Source of the DNA: Escherichia phage Msk
Strand: one strand, 5' to 3'
Length of the DNA stretch: 45,053 bases
Sequence record: MW057918
The notes under the pieces were generated by a model that saw nothing but the letters and a program-made list of their open reading frames with translations, had not been told where the DNA came from and did no database searches. The translations under genes were made by a program, and so were the position numbers. Positions 3,194 through 23,106 of the stretch are shown piece after piece (the first letter of the stretch is position 1; each line of letters opens with the position of its first letter).

Positions 3194-3595
3194 ATGAATG
3201 ATGCAATTTTGGCGTTTATGCGCTCTCTTGTTCCTGCGCTTAAAGCGGTGGATGACGAAGCAATTAATGTATGGATTGATTTGGCACGTCTATATGTATG
3301 CGAAAGCAAGTTTGGCGCAGACAAAGATAAGGCCGTAGGACTTTACGCGCTACACCTGATGCTTTCTGATGGCGCATTTAAGGGTGAGAGTGAAAGTCTG
3401 GAAACATACAGTCGAAGAATGGCAAGTTACGCACTGAGCGGTGAATTCTCTATCACCTATGATAACCAATCAGCAATCCAAGGTGATTTATCATCTTCCT
3501 CCTGGGGCCGCATGTACAAAGCACTGCTCCGCAAGAAAGGTGGCGGCTTTGGATTTATTACTTCCGCTGGTGGCGGCGGGTGCGGTTGCCGATGA
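3194..3595 (+). CDS. Hypothetical structural protein (head-tail joining region)
   Basis: ATG at 3194 preceded by GGAG; ORF track start at 3179 is a TTG extension; Gly-rich C-terminus. Confidence 0.4.
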   Translation: MNDAILAFMRSLVPALKAVDDEAINVWIDLARLYVCESKFGADKDKAVGLYALHLMLSDGAFKGESESLETYSRRMASYALSGEFSITYDNQSAIQGDLSSSSWGRMYKALLRKKGGGFGFITSAGGGGCGCR

Positions 3596-3963
3596 ACTAC
3601 AGCGAAATCGAATCAATCACTCGCTCTGGCATTGACTTCTTTAGTGATGCCAATGGCGTTTATGAAATGAGTACTGGTGATGGATATGTTGAAATCGTTA
3701 ACGGCGTTGAAGTTGAAGTTCCTTCGCAAACACTTCAGCTAAAAGGCTTGGTGCGAGAAATCAAGACGCGAGATATCGATGGCGAGTTTATCCAGTTTGG
3801 CGATAAGCGCGGAATCTTCACGGCACAGGTAGAAATCAAGCAGGGTTATCAGATTAAAGTTGATGGCGAGACTTTTGTTGTTGTTGATCCTCGCCCAGTT
3901 AAACCAACTGGTACAGTTGTTGGTTATAGACCAATTCTTCGTAGGGTGACTACTTATGGCTAG
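3592..3963 (+). CDS. Hypothetical structural protein (head-tail connector/closure candidate)
   Basis: ATGA start/stop overlap with upstream gene; position between capsid and tail genes. Confidence 0.4.
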   Translation: MNYSEIESITRSGIDFFSDANGVYEMSTGDGYVEIVNGVEVEVPSQTLQLKGLVREIKTRDIDGEFIQFGDKRGIFTAQVEIKQGYQIKVDGETFVVVDPRPVKPTGTVVGYRPILRRVTTYG

Positions 3964-6535: not shown

Positions 6536-9514
6536 ATGGCAACAAATGAATTAGCTGGAATCACACTAGCCGTAGACGTCTCGCAGGTAGACAGAGGTAC
6601 GCAGTCCCTGCAGAAGTTCAGGCAGGCAAACCAGCAAGCCGCTTCCGGCATTAGTGAGTTCGTCAATGCTGAGCAGGTTGCTAAAAACCAGGCTAGAGAT
6701 ACCGCTCGCGCACTTGCTGAGCAACAAGCATCTTTAGCTAAATTGCAAACGGCTATTGACCCAACTGCGGCAAAGTTCCGTAAGCTGCAAGAGGCAGCGG
6801 TGGGTCTTGATAAGGCGTTTGCTGCTGGCGTAGTTCCTGATGAGGAGTTTTTCCGCTTAGGTGAGGCACTTGAAACGCAGAACGCAAAACTTGCTCGATC
6901 ACGTGCAGCGCTAACTGAAGAGGGTAGGGCAGCAGCTCAAGCCGCAAAGGATAAGGCAAAGGCAAAGGCTGAAGCTGATAGGTTCATTGCGTCACTTGAG
7001 CGTCAGGCTCAGGCGGCAACATTGACGCGTGAGGAGTACTTAAAATTACAGGCTGCTCAGCTTGGCGTAAGTTCTCAGGCAGCGCCTATTATTGACAGAA
7101 TCGCCGATGCATCACAGAAGGCAAACACCCAGCTAATTGCTCAGAGCAAGGCATTTCAACGCTCTGGATTAAGCGCGGGTCAATACAAGGCTGCAATCTC
7201 TCAATTGCCAGCGCAGATTACAGACATTGGGACATCACTTGCTGGCGGCATTCCGATTTGGCTTATTGCAATTCAGCAAGGCGGGCAAATTAAGGATGCA
7301 TTTGGAGGTATTGGTAACACCTTTAGATTCGCGCTAGCAGCCTTAAATCCATTCAATGTTGCTGTTGGGGTTTTGGGTGGCGCGCTTGTTGCTCTAGGTA
7401 TCGGTGCTGCCCAGGCAGAGAGTGAATTCAGAGCATTAAATTCTGCCATTGCGTTCTCAAACAACTCCACAATCGCATCAATCTCGCAGGTTAGAGATTT
7501 GGTTAGCTCTGTTTCTGATGCTACTGATGCAACCAGAGGACTTGTGACTAGCATCGCAACAAGCCTTATTGAGCAAGGGAACCTTACGCTGACGCAGATT
7601 GACAAGATTACTAAATCTACCGCCAGATGGGCGCAGTTGACAGGTAAGGATGCAAAGGAAATTACTGGTTACTATAACCAGATTGCGAGCGACCCAATTC
7701 AAGGACTTGCTGATTTAGACAAGAGGTTTAACTTCCTTACACAGGGGCAGTTAACAACAATTGAAAGATTGAGAGAGACTAGGGGTGAGGTTGAAGCCGT
7801 AACTGCTGCTATTGATATATTTAGCAAATCACAGGAGGCAAACCTTAACGATATTGCAGCCCAGCTTACTCCTCTTGAATTGGCCTGGAATGACTTCAGG
7901 AAGTACATATCTGATGTATGGGATGCAATTAGTCGCAGAACGGTTGGGGCGCTAAACCTGTTTGTTGACGTAATCGCCGGAACAATTGAGCAAATTAGGG
8001 TCTTCATCAACCAGGGTGATGTGCTGATTGGTGAATTCGTAATTAGCGCAACACAGGCACTGCAGAACATCCCCGGCCTTGATGGTGTTGGTGATGATGT
8101 TATCAAGGGGCAGCAGAAGATTATCGATGCAGCTAAGAAGCAAAACATTGAGCTAGAGAAGTCTATCAAGGAGCGCGATGCCAGAATCAGAGAAGGAGAA
8201 CTTGGTTACGTTACTCGCAGAGAAAATCAGAATACCAATGAGCAGTCAGGCACTGATGAGGAGTTTGCAAAAAGGAAGAAAGCACTTCAGGATGAACTTG
8301 ATGCGATCAAGAAGAACAGGAAAGAAGAAAATGGTAGGGTTAAAGAGCAAAGAGACCTTACAATTGGTTACGAATCTGGCGTACTTGCACTACAGGCACA
8401 ACTCAAGGTGCTTCAGGAAAACAGGGATATTGGCGCAGTAATAAGCAATGAGCGCAAGCAGTATCTTCAGGAGGAGGCTAAATTCAGGATTCTTGAGCAG
8501 AGGCAACTTGATGGCTCAATTACCAAAGAGCAAGCAAGGCTTCTAATTGAAAAGGATAAAGTTCTTGCACTCGCAAGGCAGAAAGCTGAGTTAGGCGATC
8601 AGATTGTTTTGCAGGAGCGCGCCAATAAGTTAGCTGAAGATAACCGCAAGAAGATTCTTCAGATTAACAACGAAGCAAGCAATATTAATTTGGGGGCTGG
8701 TTTGTCATCTCGCGAGCAGCAGAGGGCAAGAGAGATTCAGGCTCTCCAGTCCAATCAGGTTAATGCTGGTGGCTCTCTTGATGATTTTGATTTTCAGCAA
8801 TTACTGGAAGCAAGAAAGGAATACTACAAGCAGGAGGATAATCTTAGGTCTGATTGGCAAGCTGGCGTAACATCAACGCTTGCAGACTTGGCTGAGAAAT
8901 ATACAGACTACAATCAGATAGCTAAGGATTTAACTGTTGCGGCATTCGATGGAATTACAGACCAGATTACAAACCTTGTAACCACTGGTGAGACCAACTT
9001 CAGGGAGTTCACCGCAAACATCCTCAAAATGATTGCGAAGATTGCAACTCAGTTACTTTTGGTTAAGGCCATCGAATCAACATTGACTAGTTTTGGTGGT
9101 GGAGGAGGTAACGCGTTTGGCTCAATTGCTTCCGGGTTAGGTTTCGCTGGTGGCGGCTACACTGGTGATGGTGGAAAATATCAGCCAGCAGGAACGGTAC
9201 ACCGAGGTGAGTTTGTATTCACAAAAGAAGCGACAAGCAGAATTGGTGTGAAAAACCTTTACGCACTAATGAAAGGTTACGCGAATGGCGGTGTTGTTGG
9301 TGGCCCTTCTGGTTATGCGAATGGTGGATTGGTTTCTGGAGGCGCAGATGTTAATGTTAGCGGGATTACTGTTAGCGTTAATAGTGGGATTGGAAGCAAC
9401 CCAGAGCAGGCCAAGGCGCTGCAAAATGGCGTTAAGGCAATCGTAGCTGAAGAGATTGCTCAGTCATTCCAGCAGGGGGGCAGAGCTTATCAGTACCTTC
9501 GCGGATTCAACTAA
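6536..9514 (+). CDS. Tail tape measure protein
   Basis: 992-aa ORF, long coiled-coil-type low-complexity regions, Gly-rich C-terminal segment, canonical position after G/GT. Confidence 0.8.
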   Translation: MATNELAGITLAVDVSQVDRGTQSLQKFRQANQQAASGISEFVNAEQVAKNQARDTARALAEQQASLAKLQTAIDPTAAKFRKLQEAAVGLDKAFAAGVVPDEEFFRLGEALETQNAKLARSRAALTEEGRAAAQAAKDKAKAKAEADRFIASLERQAQAATLTREEYLKLQAAQLGVSSQAAPIIDRIADASQKANTQLIAQSKAFQRSGLSAGQYKAAISQLPAQITDIGTSLAGGIPIWLIAIQQGGQIKDAFGGIGNTFRFALAALNPFNVAVGVLGGALVALGIGAAQAESEFRALNSAIAFSNNSTIASISQVRDLVSSVSDATDATRGLVTSIATSLIEQGNLTLTQIDKITKSTARWAQLTGKDAKEITGYYNQIASDPIQGLADLDKRFNFLTQGQLTTIERLRETRGEVEAVTAAIDIFSKSQEANLNDIAAQLTPLELAWNDFRKYISDVWDAISRRTVGALNLFVDVIAGTIEQIRVFINQGDVLIGEFVISATQALQNIPGLDGVGDDVIKGQQKIIDAAKKQNIELEKSIKERDARIREGELGYVTRRENQNTNEQSGTDEEFAKRKKALQDELDAIKKNRKEENGRVKEQRDLTIGYESGVLALQAQLKVLQENRDIGAVISNERKQYLQEEAKFRILEQRQLDGSITKEQARLLIEKDKVLALARQKAELGDQIVLQERANKLAEDNRKKILQINNEASNINLGAGLSSREQQRAREIQALQSNQVNAGGSLDDFDFQQLLEARKEYYKQEDNLRSDWQAGVTSTLADLAEKYTDYNQIAKDLTVAAFDGITDQITNLVTTGETNFREFTANILKMIAKIATQLLLVKAIESTLTSFGGGGGNAFGSIASGLGFAGGGYTGDGGKYQPAGTVHRGEFVFTKEATSRIGVKNLYALMKGYANGGVVGGPSGYANGGLVSGGADVNVSGITVSVNSGIGSNPEQAKALQNGVKAIVAEEIAQSFQQGGRAYQYLRGFN

Positions 9515-20094: not shown

Positions 20095-20529
20095 ATGCAC
20101 GTAATTACCGGTCAGATTCGCCGCGCTCCGTTCACCAAAGAAGGTCAAAACGCCAATGGTAACTGGAAGATGTTTGCGGTTGATTTGAGTGAGAGATACA
20201 AGGATAAAGATGGTCAAACTCAGTACACAAACTACCGCGCAGTACTTTTCGCCAAAGAGTCGATGCTGGATTGGTATAACGAAGCATTTCAGGAAGGTAA
20301 AGTTGTCAGCCTAAGCGCCGAGAGTTTGTCGGTTGATGTTCGCGATAAAGATGGCAAGACTTACGTTACAGTTAATATGAATAATCCTCGACTGGAATTT
20401 AGTCAGCGAGGTGATTCAGCGACACAACAGCAGATGCAAAACCAACAGCGTCAGCAACAGAAGCAGCAGCAACAACAGCGACAACAGCCACAACAGCAAA
20501 GTCAATTTGACGACGACATTCCTTTTTGA
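20095..20529 (+). CDS. ssb: Single-stranded DNA-binding protein
   Basis: OB-fold-sized N-terminal domain, Q-rich linker, canonical acidic C-terminal tail DDDIPF. Confidence 0.85.
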   Translation: MHVITGQIRRAPFTKEGQNANGNWKMFAVDLSERYKDKDGQTQYTNYRAVLFAKESMLDWYNEAFQEGKVVSLSAESLSVDVRDKDGKTYVTVNMNNPRLEFSQRGDSATQQQMQNQQRQQQKQQQQQRQQPQQQSQFDDDIPF

Positions 20530-20539
20530 TGTAAAATAT

Positions 20540-20566
20540 AAAGCCCCTTTCGGGGCTTTTTTATTT
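20540..20566. terminator. Bidirectional rho-independent terminator (ssb operon / tailspike)
   Basis: aaagcccctttcggggctttttt flanked by A-run and T-run. Confidence 0.7.
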
Positions 20567-23015
20567 AATAAATTTTTACATCTGGAGAAATTCCAACGCA
20601 AGTCCAGCGCGAGAACTTGGCATCATAAACGAATGACATTCCAATTTGTCTCCCCTCAGATGGAGTTGTGAATGAGCCAACTCTAAACTTATTGCTAAAT
20701 GAAACGGATGGACGCCGGCCGCCTGAAAGGTTGTAAATTATGAAGTCTATCCTCTGTGCATCTCTTGCGTTATCCTGAACATCAATAACTACAGGACTTG
20801 AATCAATTACAACGGTTGCAAGACTTGTTCTTAGTGGGTTAAATAGAATACTACCACCAGATAGCTGAACCCTTTTTTGAACGGGGTTAGAAGAATCCGT
20901 GTACAACCCTGTGTTTATATTATACAAAGCCTCCCATGAATTCAGTTTTGAGTCATCAATCACTGTTGCATACTGCCCAAATAGTATAGTCCCTTCTACA
21001 TGGTTTCCTGAAGCTCCATTATAAAAATCAAAACCAGAAGCTGATCCACCAACAAACCTATTAGCTCTAGCTCCGTTAACTTGAATTGATGGAGACTGAA
21101 AACCTGACTTCAGGCCATTGAACAAGTTTCCTGTCGCCGTCTTCCTAAGAACGACGTCACCACCAGAGTTGACCTCAAGGTCGCAACCAATAACAGTGTT
21201 AGTTACTGCTGTTATGCCTAGGTCTGACTCATGACCGAAAGAAAACCCATACTTATTTCCCTCGCTGGTTCCACCAATAAATGTCGTATTACTGCAGAAT
21301 GTAGCCTCAATTCCTGATTCTGTTACATGCTCGCAAGTTGGGTTAATAAAAAGATCTGCAGATGTGCCGCGGAAGTTCACAGCGCCAGCCTCTGCGTCAA
21401 TTAATATGCCGTACGTAGGCGTCGTTGTGAAGGTCTCAACGTTACCAGAGCACACAAAGTTATTATGCACGCATAGCTGAGTCCACCAGCAGTGTAAACC
21501 AGCCCTTCTAATGTTCGTAGCCATTAGGTTGTCAAAGCATGATGATATGACACCCCTTAATGAAAAGCCATCACTAGCATACCCATTCCCATCGACAATG
21601 ATGTTGCTCATATATGAGTTGTATGCCCAATAATCTAGGTTTACATCCCTATGATCCATTTGGATGACGTAATCATGAGGTCCGCTAGTTAGTGAGATTC
21701 TTGCGCCTTTCTCACCGATAATTGTTGCTGGCCTCAGAAAGTTTAATGGCTGAGATGTAAGATAATTACCTTTAGGAATATGTATAGCAATAGCGTTGTT
21801 TCTAGATGCCTCAACAGCGGCAAGCAATGCCTGAGTATCATCTGTTACACCATCACCAACAGCGCCAAAGTCCTTCTTAATATCGACATGAGTAAGTAAA
21901 GCGTTTACCTCTGGCTTTGAGTAAACATCAAGATTTGTTCTTGCTGCTGACTTATTTGCAACATCAGAGAAATTCAATGATTTTTGAAAAGTCTCATTTT
22001 TTGAATAAACATCAAGATTTGTTCTTGCTGCTGACTTATTTGCAACATCAGAGAAATTCAATGATTTTTGAAAAGTCTCATTTTTTGAATAAACATCAAG
22101 TAAGTTTCTAGCCCTCGATGCCGTAGCTCCACCTCCGGACTTGCCAGCCTCAACCATCACCATTTCCCTACCTGGTGCATAAACCCTGCTTCCGGGCGCT
22201 CCCACAAACTGAATGTAAATCTCCCTGCTATACTGGTTGCTTGTTGAAGATTGGCCTACAACTCGCAAGGAGTGCGTGGTTGTATTGCTTGACTTTGATA
22301 TTACCTGAATGCATAAAGCAGCAATTGATGTTCCAAATGTTGAGATTATGTCATTTGGAGCATTTATCATTGATGAAACGTTAACCATATAAAGGCCACC
22401 GGATTTAAAAACAAATTCCTGCCAATCAAAATTGCTTATCAATGGCGTAGTGTCTGTCGCCAATCCATATCCGGCAAGAGTTACCAACGTTCCGGCATCC
22501 CCGGCGTTATTAATTGCTTTAATCGTCTGATCTCTTGCTGCAGTGGTCGTGTCTCTTGCACTAATAGCAGTAGCGGCGCTCTCTTCGGCAGCAATCTGGC
22601 TAGCAAGAGCCTCAGCAGCTCCAGTGGTGGATTGTTTTGCAAGCTGCTCGAAGAGAGGCCAGTCGAAAGTGTCTTGACCAATAAATTGCAACAATCCTTC
22701 GATTGATGTCTCCTTTGACTGGTAGTAACGCAAAGTCTCTGCTACATCCTGAGCCAACCCCTGAACGGTAATTCCATCGTGCGCAAGAATTGCATAACCA
22801 GTTCCGGAAGGAACAGTTTCAGAGTTAGGGTTGTAAACATTAATCTGAGTATCGCTGATGATTTCAGAGATGGTATAAATCTTCAGGGGGCTGGTTTTAA
22901 AAATAATGGTTGCACCTACGCGAATAAGTGTAAGCGGTGCTTTCCATGTTGTACCCACGCCAGTTACCTCGCCATTTGCGGCCAGCGACGCTGTTCCTAA
23001 GTCATAAATTGCCAT
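20565..23015 (-). CDS. Tailspike with pectate-lyase-type beta-helix (putative polysaccharide depolymerase)
   Basis: ATG at 23015 with GGAGAA SD; DFGAVGDGVTDDTQAL signature of pectate_lyase_3-type tailspikes; internal perfect 28-aa tandem repeat. Confidence 0.7.
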   Translation of the reverse strand: MAIYDLGTASLAANGEVTGVGTTWKAPLTLIRVGATIIFKTSPLKIYTISEIISDTQINVYNPNSETVPSGTGYAILAHDGITVQGLAQDVAETLRYYQSKETSIEGLLQFIGQDTFDWPLFEQLAKQSTTGAAEALASQIAAEESAATAISARDTTTAARDQTIKAINNAGDAGTLVTLAGYGLATDTTPLISNFDWQEFVFKSGGLYMVNVSSMINAPNDIISTFGTSIAALCIQVISKSSNTTTHSLRVVGQSSTSNQYSREIYIQFVGAPGSRVYAPGREMVMVEAGKSGGGATASRARNLLDVYSKNETFQKSLNFSDVANKSAARTNLDVYSKNETFQKSLNFSDVANKSAARTNLDVYSKPEVNALLTHVDIKKDFGAVGDGVTDDTQALLAAVEASRNNAIAIHIPKGNYLTSQPLNFLRPATIIGEKGARISLTSGPHDYVIQMDHRDVNLDYWAYNSYMSNIIVDGNGYASDGFSLRGVISSCFDNLMATNIRRAGLHCWWTQLCVHNNFVCSGNVETFTTTPTYGILIDAEAGAVNFRGTSADLFINPTCEHVTESGIEATFCSNTTFIGGTSEGNKYGFSFGHESDLGITAVTNTVIGCDLEVNSGGDVVLRKTATGNLFNGLKSGFQSPSIQVNGARANRFVGGSASGFDFYNGASGNHVEGTILFGQYATVIDDSKLNSWEALYNINTGLYTDSSNPVQKRVQLSGGSILFNPLRTSLATVVIDSSPVVIDVQDNARDAQRIDFIIYNLSGGRRPSVSFSNKFRVGSFTTPSEGRQIGMSFVYDAKFSRWTCVGISPDVKIY
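21923..22100. repeat. Perfect 84-bp tandem duplication (2 copies plus 10-bp partial) inside tailspike coding sequence
   Basis: Identical 84-bp units at 21923-22006 and 22007-22090 seen directly. Confidence 0.85.
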
Positions 23016-23079: not shown

Positions 23080-23106
23080 ATAAAAAAAACCTCCCAAAGG
23101 AGGTTA
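23080..23106 (-). terminator. Rho-independent terminator after primase gene
   Basis: minus strand reads acctcctttgggaggtttttttt. Confidence 0.65.

Follow-up and report, generated by a model that had tools for sequence, protein, structure and literature searches.

A perfect 84-bp tandem duplication in the shaft-repeat region of the lateral tail fibre gene of Escherichia phage Msk

In the genome of Escherichia phage Msk (MW057918; 45,053 nucleotides (nt), analysed as one stretch and referred to as the window), the gene for the lateral tail fibre contains two identical 84-bp units arranged head to tail. The locus raises the question of whether the second unit is a product of short-read assembly or a real duplication and, if real, how it arose and what it does to the fibre. 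The most probable answer, at about 0.78, is a genuine and very recent in-frame duplication of one shaft unit in the T1-like (Drexlerviridae, Braunvirinae) phages MSK and OzMSK, mediated by short repeats that bracket the unit, and likely neutral and unstable.

The array in MSK and OzMSK

In coding orientation, the perfectly periodic stretch extends over 179 bp from window position 22100 down to 21922 (gene nt 916-1094) and comprises 2.13 copies: two identical 84-bp units and an 11-nt partial third copy, CTTGATGTTTA. The periodicity is prolonged to 21916 with one mismatch, the partial copy running on as cTCAAA. On the plus strand, the units at 21923-22006 and 22007-22090 agree at every base and positions 22091-22100 repeat the first 10 unit bases, confirming the tandem duplication with a 10-bp partial third copy given in the preliminary description. 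Tandem Repeats Finder detects a single array at 21916-22100 (period 84, 2.2 copies, 99% matches, score 363), while the next-best tandem repeat of the 45-kb window scores 55. An exact match of 84 nt cannot occur by chance in 45 kb. The array is divided as follows.

22017..22100, minus strand: repeat copy A, gene nt 916-999, amino acids (aa) 306-333, LDVYSKNETFQKSLNFSDVANKSAARTN; includes position 22030
21933..22016, minus strand: repeat copy B, gene nt 1000-1083, aa 334-361; identical to copy A
21916..21932, minus strand: partial third copy, equal to the 3' bracket; CTTGATGTTTA perfect at 21922-21932, then cTCAAA with one mismatch

The array is in frame within the minus-strand fibre gene (20565-23015), with a period of 28 aa. 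The repeated peptide LDVYSKNETFQKSLNFSDVANKSAARTN occupies aa 306-333 and aa 334-361, followed by LDVYSK at aa 362-367. This last segment is encoded by the 3' bracket (21916..21932) and lies where the C-terminal module begins; the bracket is also found in the single-copy alleles of phages BEK6 and BEK1-1 and of the metagenomic contig L006. The peptide had been described as present twice, which stands (aa 306-361), but the residue assigned before the first copy does not: N-L precedes it, so the sequence reads NLLDVYSK and not NLDVYSK. The duplication junction has the sequence ACAAATCTTGATGTTTATTCAAAAAAT. Scanning of both strands across the repeat found no Rfam family, promoter or terminator, hence no sign of a non-coding function on either strand. 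A 64-aa open reading frame (ORF) on the plus strand (21917-22111, TTG start) sits wholly inside the repeat and is internally repeated itself; it mirrors the duplication as a by-product, and nothing marks it as a real gene.

The window is a rotation of the genome of vB_ecoS_OzMSK (PQ659294.1, 45,053 bp), window base 1 corresponding to record base 8284. Between the two there are 8 substitutions and a single 1-nt indel in a homopolymer; in addition, one base is missing where the window was opened. According to the OzMSK paper, OzMSK and MSK (MW057918, Hangzhou) differ by 'only 9 nucleotides' and the MSK GenBank entry is 'unverified' and missing from BLAST databases (PMC13035648); the MSK paper reports a genome of 45,053 bp and a tail fibre protein of 816 aa (PMC8421802). 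Inside the repeat, the sole difference is located in copy A, at 22030 (G in the window, T in OzMSK; A329E), and the two copies of OzMSK therefore differ by 1 nt. The zero divergence stated earlier thus applies to the window copies and not to OzMSK (KSEART versus KSAART).

The agreement between the two isolates bears directly on the possibility that the genome carries one unit and that contig joining or gap filling created the second. Several circumstances are compatible with such an artefact: the window's two copies are identical, the MSK assembly combined several short-read assemblers with CISA and GapCloser (PMC8421802) and its GenBank entry is 'unverified', and all raw SPAdes contigs of OzMSK opened in the fibre gene XLM52761 (PMC13035648). 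However, two independent isolates, processed in separate laboratories with separate pipelines, give the same 816-aa product and the same 45,053 bp, and the OzMSK copies are distinguished by a copy-specific single-nucleotide polymorphism (SNP). The period of 84 is even, whereas an untrimmed de Bruijn overlap has the length of an odd k (21/33/55 for OzMSK). The copy A/B junction is impossible without reads carrying it, and the 2x250-bp reads of OzMSK are long enough for the whole 179-bp array. Moreover, the same anatomy is present in unrelated contigs with single-copy partners (L011 and L012, below). With a perfect bracket of 11 nt, a single-copy gene would contain no repeated 21-, 33- or 55-mer, so that the contig breaks themselves imply a true repeat longer than 55 nt. 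The array is thus present in more than one assembly, does not have the length of an assembler k-mer, and has copies that need not be identical. An assembly origin is accordingly highly improbable. Of the earlier alternative, 'very recent duplication or assembly artefact', the recent duplication is retained, while the artefact is unlikely in view of the agreement of the two assemblies, the OzMSK SNP and the even period.

Three of the 8 substitutions between MSK and OzMSK fall within the fibre gene, which makes up 5.4% of the genome (A329E, Y682H and K814N, all non-synonymous; binomial estimate of the clustering, p ~0.007). The clustering fits relaxed constraint; selection or local sequencing difficulty are alternative readings. 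Relative to PQ659294.1, all 7 coding differences (1463, 1466, 14826, 20574, 20972, 22030 and 36544) are non-synonymous, and 4 of them are in tail genes, namely T925A in the gpJ-like fibre and the three in the lateral fibre. Two differences are non-coding: a substitution between genes (36715) and the indel at 23089 (plus strand, A8 against A7; 23088-23105), which falls in the T-run of a terminator-like hairpin separating the primase and fibre genes. In the capsid decoration gene, the differences at 1463 and 1466 produce H72Q and a premature stop, Y73*, relative to OzMSK, leaving ORFs of 72 aa and 81 aa (1248-1466 and 1512-1757). The OzMSK annotation describes the decoration protein as similar to two separate T1 genes, gp48 and gp49; the split may exist naturally, or it may stem from a sequencing error in the MSK entry, which is 'unverified'.

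Single-copy alleles, brackets and origin of the array

The comparison of related fibre genes for copy number, proposed in the preliminary description, returns a single unit throughout. None of the 120 best homologous proteins from a collection of 5.8 billion proteins contains two units. For 59 further phage genomes, the two query copies align to one and the same span of ~105-143 bp, that is, one unit each, and a conserved 27-mer from the unit, scanned against viral and metagenome contigs, picks out 3 loci, also with one copy each. The 38-mer of the duplication junction was not found in GTDB genomes, and an exact look-up of the 816-aa protein gave no match on record elsewhere, which leaves no third independent occurrence of the MSK duplication.

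A metagenomic sister allele, P0001 (contig L006, ENA ERZ794978), combines the N-terminal half and the pectate-lyase module of MSK with a single unit. At the DNA level, P0001 matches MSK exactly in the 84-nt unit and in both flanks, and is shorter by exactly 84 bp. By BLAST, MSK 1-1016 matches P0001 1-1016 (97.7%) and MSK 1000-1560 matches P0001 916-1476 (99.6%), an exact offset of 84 nt, with ~25 mismatches in ~1.56 kb (~1.6%) between the alleles. P0001 is the empty site of the duplication. BEK6 and BEK1-1 contain one unit between LLDVYSK and NLDVYSK, vB_Ec-G8 contains one unit followed by NLGL, and all three diverge completely afterwards. Among the relatives examined, the duplication is private to the MSK/OzMSK lineage. 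Its absence from a sister allele diverged by ~1.6%, and from all other relatives, upholds the earlier suggestion that it is recent. From the distribution of alleles, it arose later than the split from a P0001-like form and earlier than the split of MSK and OzMSK (~9 differences in 45 kb).

In the single-copy alleles, the unit is bracketed at both ends by CTTGATGTTTA(T/C)TCAAA, encoding LDVYSK. In BEK6, BEK1-1 and P0001, the 5' bracket reads CTT GAT GTT TAT TCA AAA and the 3' bracket CTT GAT GTT TAC TCA AA(A/G). The junction of copies A and B in MSK reads ACA AAT / CTT GAT GTT TA / T TCA AAA AAT. It is a hybrid: its left part (ACA AAT) is the upstream context known from the 3' bracket, its right part (TAT TCA AAA AAT) the downstream context known from the 5' bracket, and it therefore points to out-of-register pairing within 11 nt of perfect microhomology, by slippage or unequal recombination. 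All the marks expected of a microhomology-bracketed duplication are found here: a single-copy parental allele, short direct repeats on either side of the unit, and a junction of hybrid sequence.

We infer a molecular route of slippage or recombination. The brackets are most probably leftovers of the natural periodicity of the shaft repeat; by pairing out of register, during replication slippage or unequal recombination, they would cause the intervening 84 bp to be doubled. The genes for an Erf recombinase, an ExoVIII-like nuclease and SSB lie directly beside the fibre gene, and this phage-encoded module may have taken part. The ancestral state of 1.3 copies may itself derive from an older, diverged duplication, as the pair 'SRARNLLDVYSK' and 'AARTNLDVYSK' suggests.

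Similar arrays, from independent duplications, are present in two other lateral fibre genes of metagenomic Drexlerviridae. In L011 (P0020, 476 aa), an unrelated 84-nt unit is repeated 2.13 times at 1831-2009 with 100% identity and an 11-nt bracket; the single-copy form is P0104 (448 aa), with partner alleles on L014 and L015. In L012 (P0039, 353 aa), a 90-nt unit is repeated 2.19 times at 2110-2306, with identical copies and a 17-nt bracket. Its single-copy partner, L013 (P0035, 323 aa), shows 3 mismatches in 2.2 kb, none in 1.9 kb, and an exact offset of 90 nt. Each of the two brackets is furnished by the next, diverged natural repeat. A perfect one-unit duplication is also seen at the protein level in 7 of the 150 top representatives of the shaft-repeat family described below. 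Together, these cases indicate that one-unit expansion is a common, ongoing change in this family.

The recurrence of perfect duplications in three Drexlerviridae lineages and in 7/150 family representatives, the PCR (polymerase chain reaction) variability reported for the fibre gene and the adjoining recombination genes could also be explained by a contingency-type hypervariable module. Its copy number would change frequently with the aid of Erf, ExoVIII and SSB, and several fibre lengths would always be present as a form of bet-hedging. Yet the array has two copies only, and no recent arrays of 3 or more are seen in Drexlerviridae relatives; ordinary slippage would produce such recurrence just as well in any periodic gene, and the synteny with recombination genes is family-wide and unrelated to repeats. 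Such a module is judged very unlikely. A broader form of the proposal, also decidedly unlikely, is that the neck repeats of Drexlerviridae act as a high-frequency copy-number switch, microhomology and the recombination module generating varied fibre lengths within a population. If true, it would provide bet-hedging against O-antigen or capsule layers of differing thickness, and the MSK duplication, the varied PCR products and the duplications in L011 and L012 would each record one moment of the process.

The repeated unit within the lateral fibre

The fibre gene and its parts are arranged as follows.

20565..23015, minus strand: lateral tail fibre gene, 816 aa, ATG at 23015, beginning MAIYDLG; equal to OzMSK CDS_047 / XLM52761 and to MSK_000019
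22506..23015, minus strand: conserved N-terminal anchor region, ~aa 1-170, from invariant alignment columns and homologues
22116..22463, minus strand: beta-rich middle domain, ~aa 185-300, from the alignment and from AlphaFold2 (AF2) strands with a predicted local distance difference test score (pLDDT) of 58-85
20568..21890, minus strand: C-terminal pectate-lyase-like (beta-helix) module, receptor-binding or enzymatic, aa 376-816, from PF12708, PHROG 18522 and PDB sequence matches
20540..20559, no strand: bidirectional terminator-like hairpin between the ssb and fibre genes, from a terminator scan

The N-terminal region is shared among relatives, and the C-terminal parts that follow it are unrelated. 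In an alignment of 35 homologues, aa 1-100 are almost invariant and conservation extends over ~100-170 aa; the 5' end of the gene is matched by 72 phage records. The beta-rich middle domain is specific to the long N-terminal half of the MSK/BEK/G8 type. PHROG 24092 covers aa 1-334, and PHROG 18522 (tail protein) covers aa 381-812. PF12708 (pectate-lyase-like) matches aa 381-455 (E=4e-12, 46.8 bits against a curated cutoff of 27), and PDB sequence matches to beta-helix glycanases, phi29 gp12, Phi92 gp150 and the Sf6 tailspike all start after the repeat. These boundaries, PHROG 24092 at aa 1-334 on one side and PF12708 from aa 381 together with PHROG 18522 on the other, bear out the earlier placement of the repeat between the N-terminal part and the beta-helix domain.

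The gene lies between exoVIII/erf/ssb and primase/helicase, on the opposite strand, with the same synteny in T1-like relatives, and the homologues from JulesPiccard and ETEP102 carry the name 'lateral tail fiber protein'. The lateral fibre locus of Drexlerviridae is described as hypervariable except for its 5' end, and the fibres are proposed to bind O-antigen while being dispensable on rough hosts; that they are lateral fibres of the virion binding a surface glycan is considered likely but 'never directly demonstrated' (Maffei et al. 2021; PMC8594841). The name 'tailspike' used previously suits the enzymatic domain and not the protein as a whole, which is better described as a lateral tail fibre of the Drexlerviridae type whose enzymatic domain is tailspike-like. 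Beside the fibre gene, the C-terminal part of the SSB gene (window 20452-20499) encodes a Gln-rich low-complexity tract (CAACAGCAA-type, period 9/12) ahead of the acidic DDDIPF tail. HNH homing endonuclease genes lie beside primase in L002 (BEK1-1; 3324-3848) and in L012 and L013 (both 1-493), and not in the window.

Roughly half of the homologues carry NLL(RKD)L-x-(L/F)SD(L/V)-x-x-K-x-x-AR-x-NL(D/G)VYSK-x-E right before unrelated C-terminal modules (60 distinct contexts), a placement that makes this motif the junction for module exchange. In P0017 (L007:3001-4989), from another phage, the MSK pectate-lyase module (93% nt identity) is mounted on a shorter shaft of another kind, helical and rich in Ala/Ser. 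Shaft and module meet precisely at ...SRTNLDVYSKPEVNALL, direct evidence for the repeat motif as the point of module exchange.

A 40-column profile, A2, was built from the motif contexts, its first row being the MSK-type unit, identical in P0001. Against the PDB, it matches 9zd7 with E=1e-27 in six tandem matches at a spacing of 33 aa, and more weakly the putative tail fibre 7z47, the Mu tail fibre S and the T5 L-shaped fibre. Against 1.84 billion representative proteins, it retrieves 3,643 proteins at E<=1e-3. The 150 top matches contain 2-26 matched stretches each, mostly 3-9 copies per protein, with core-motif spacings of 33 aa (190), 32 aa (72), 35 aa (33) and 28 aa (20). Pfam applied to the repeat segment alone gives only sub-threshold noise (DUF240, CSN1_C), no Pfam model covering the motif, and a single-sequence PDB search with the neck and the start of the beta-helix gives matches in the beta-helix only and none on the repeat. 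The profile matches thus identify the duplicated 28 aa as one unit of a widespread shaft repeat, NLSD-x5-AR-x-NLG/D, and not as an unstructured segment. The generic linker assumed in the preliminary description gives way to this family membership (9zd7 six times, 3,643 proteins).

Two other structural approaches were discarded. A coiled coil, to which 28 residues would contribute 4 heptads, is rejected on inspection, the hydrophobic residues showing no a/d pattern. The AF2 monomer of the full protein was dropped as structural evidence, with a mean pLDDT of 50 and ~30 over aa 289-373, the repeat region; in its C-terminal part, only aa 376-500 form confident strands, and aa 517-816 remain below 50.

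Consequence for the fibre and comparison with known systems

In the proposed product, two shaft units instead of one would separate the N-terminal virion-attachment half from the pectate-lyase-like domain that binds or degrades glycans. By proportion to 9zd7 (499 aa for 410 A), the extra unit would add ~2-3 nm to the presumed trimeric neck. The phages were isolated on rough strains, E. coli C for MSK (PMC8421802) and BL21(DE3) for OzMSK (PMC13035648), on which a glycan-directed lateral fibre is probably dispensable. On such hosts, the duplication is most likely neutral, unstable, and liable to contract or expand. Broken contigs and variable PCR results in the fibre gene are described by the OzMSK authors (PMC13035648), and instability of the repeat would account for both.

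The longer neck could instead have been selected, the extra unit letting the enzymatic domain reach further or move more freely on some host surface. Adaptive tuning of this kind is consistent with the wide range of shaft-repeat number in the family (2 to 26), with the presence of the duplication in both isolates, and with the enrichment of MSK-OzMSK differences in the fibre gene, all non-synonymous. It is nevertheless unlikely: the known hosts are rough strains, lacking the O-antigen that the fibre would bind, the MSK unit is present twice in no other relative, no divergence has built up between the copies, and the reported PCR variability points to instability and not to fixation. A near-neutral, unstable duplication is accordingly ranked above both adaptive length tuning and a programmed contingency switch.

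Several points weigh against the near-neutral, recent duplication. Both assemblies are short-read, that of MSK with a gap-closing step, and the copy number in the phage population (1, 2, 3 or a mixture) is taken from assembled sequences. Zero differences in 84 nt bound the divergence between the copies only to < ~3.6% (95%), and gene conversion could hold the copies identical. The structural consequence depends on analogy with 9zd7, the AF2 monomer being uninformative over the repeat (pLDDT ~30), and neutrality, like the length change and the instability, is something we infer.

A recent and unstable duplication would explain a loose end of the OzMSK paper, namely the opening of all contigs in XLM52761 and the variation among PCR products; the presence of a repeat is already hinted at there (PMC13035648). 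In the assembly and annotation of MSK-like laboratory contaminant phages, the repeat is to be treated as real. Taken together, the single-copy parent, its brackets and the hybrid junction provide a base-level example of a fibre shaft gaining single structural repeats, and NLSD...AR.NL(D/G)VYSK, as a swap point for receptor-binding modules in Drexlerviridae, is relevant to the engineering of chimeric fibres.

Compared with the lateral fibres of other Drexlerviridae (JulesPiccard, BEK6 and vB_Ec-G8; PMC8594841), the MSK fibre has the same N-terminal anchor, the same locus between recombination genes and primase, and the same junction motif followed by exchangeable C-terminal modules; each of the others contains one YSKNETFQKSLNFSDV...AR.NL unit, whereas MSK and OzMSK contain two. 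The structure 9zd7 is the short tail fibre gp92 of the Pseudomonas phage P7-1, a slender trimer ~410 A long and ~25 A thick (bioRxiv 10.1101/2025.11.26.690771). In this Pakpunavirus protein, L-x-x-x-x-NL(S/A)D(L/V)-x-x-K/x-x-x-AR-x-NLG(L/V) occurs six times in tandem, with one 'ARQNLSVYSKAE' variant. The likeness is at the level of the motif and not of the whole protein: gp92 has a period of 33 aa against 28 in MSK, its copies are old and diverged, and it is a myovirus baseplate fibre without an enzymatic beta-helix domain.

The metagenomic Drexlerviridae lateral fibres of L011 and L012 share with MSK two perfect head-to-tail shaft units, a bracket of 11-17 nt and the existence of single-copy partners; they differ in unit sequence, in position along the fibre (aa 111 and 204) and in C-terminal module (Peptidase_S74 and Gp53-like_C). 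In the adenovirus fibre shaft and the long tail fibres of T-even phages, length is set by the number of short repeats, which varies between relatives. Their repeats and folds are unrelated to those of MSK, and the length effect is proven experimentally in adenovirus, while the MSK case is known from sequence. In tandem duplication by slippage or microhomology generally, short direct repeats flank the parental segment, the junction is a hybrid and 2.1-2.2 copies result. The same holds for MSK, and nothing distinguishes it mechanistically from such events. In conclusion, nothing here amounts to a new kind of system; fibres built from such repeats are already known, and the duplication is an ordinary event in one of them.

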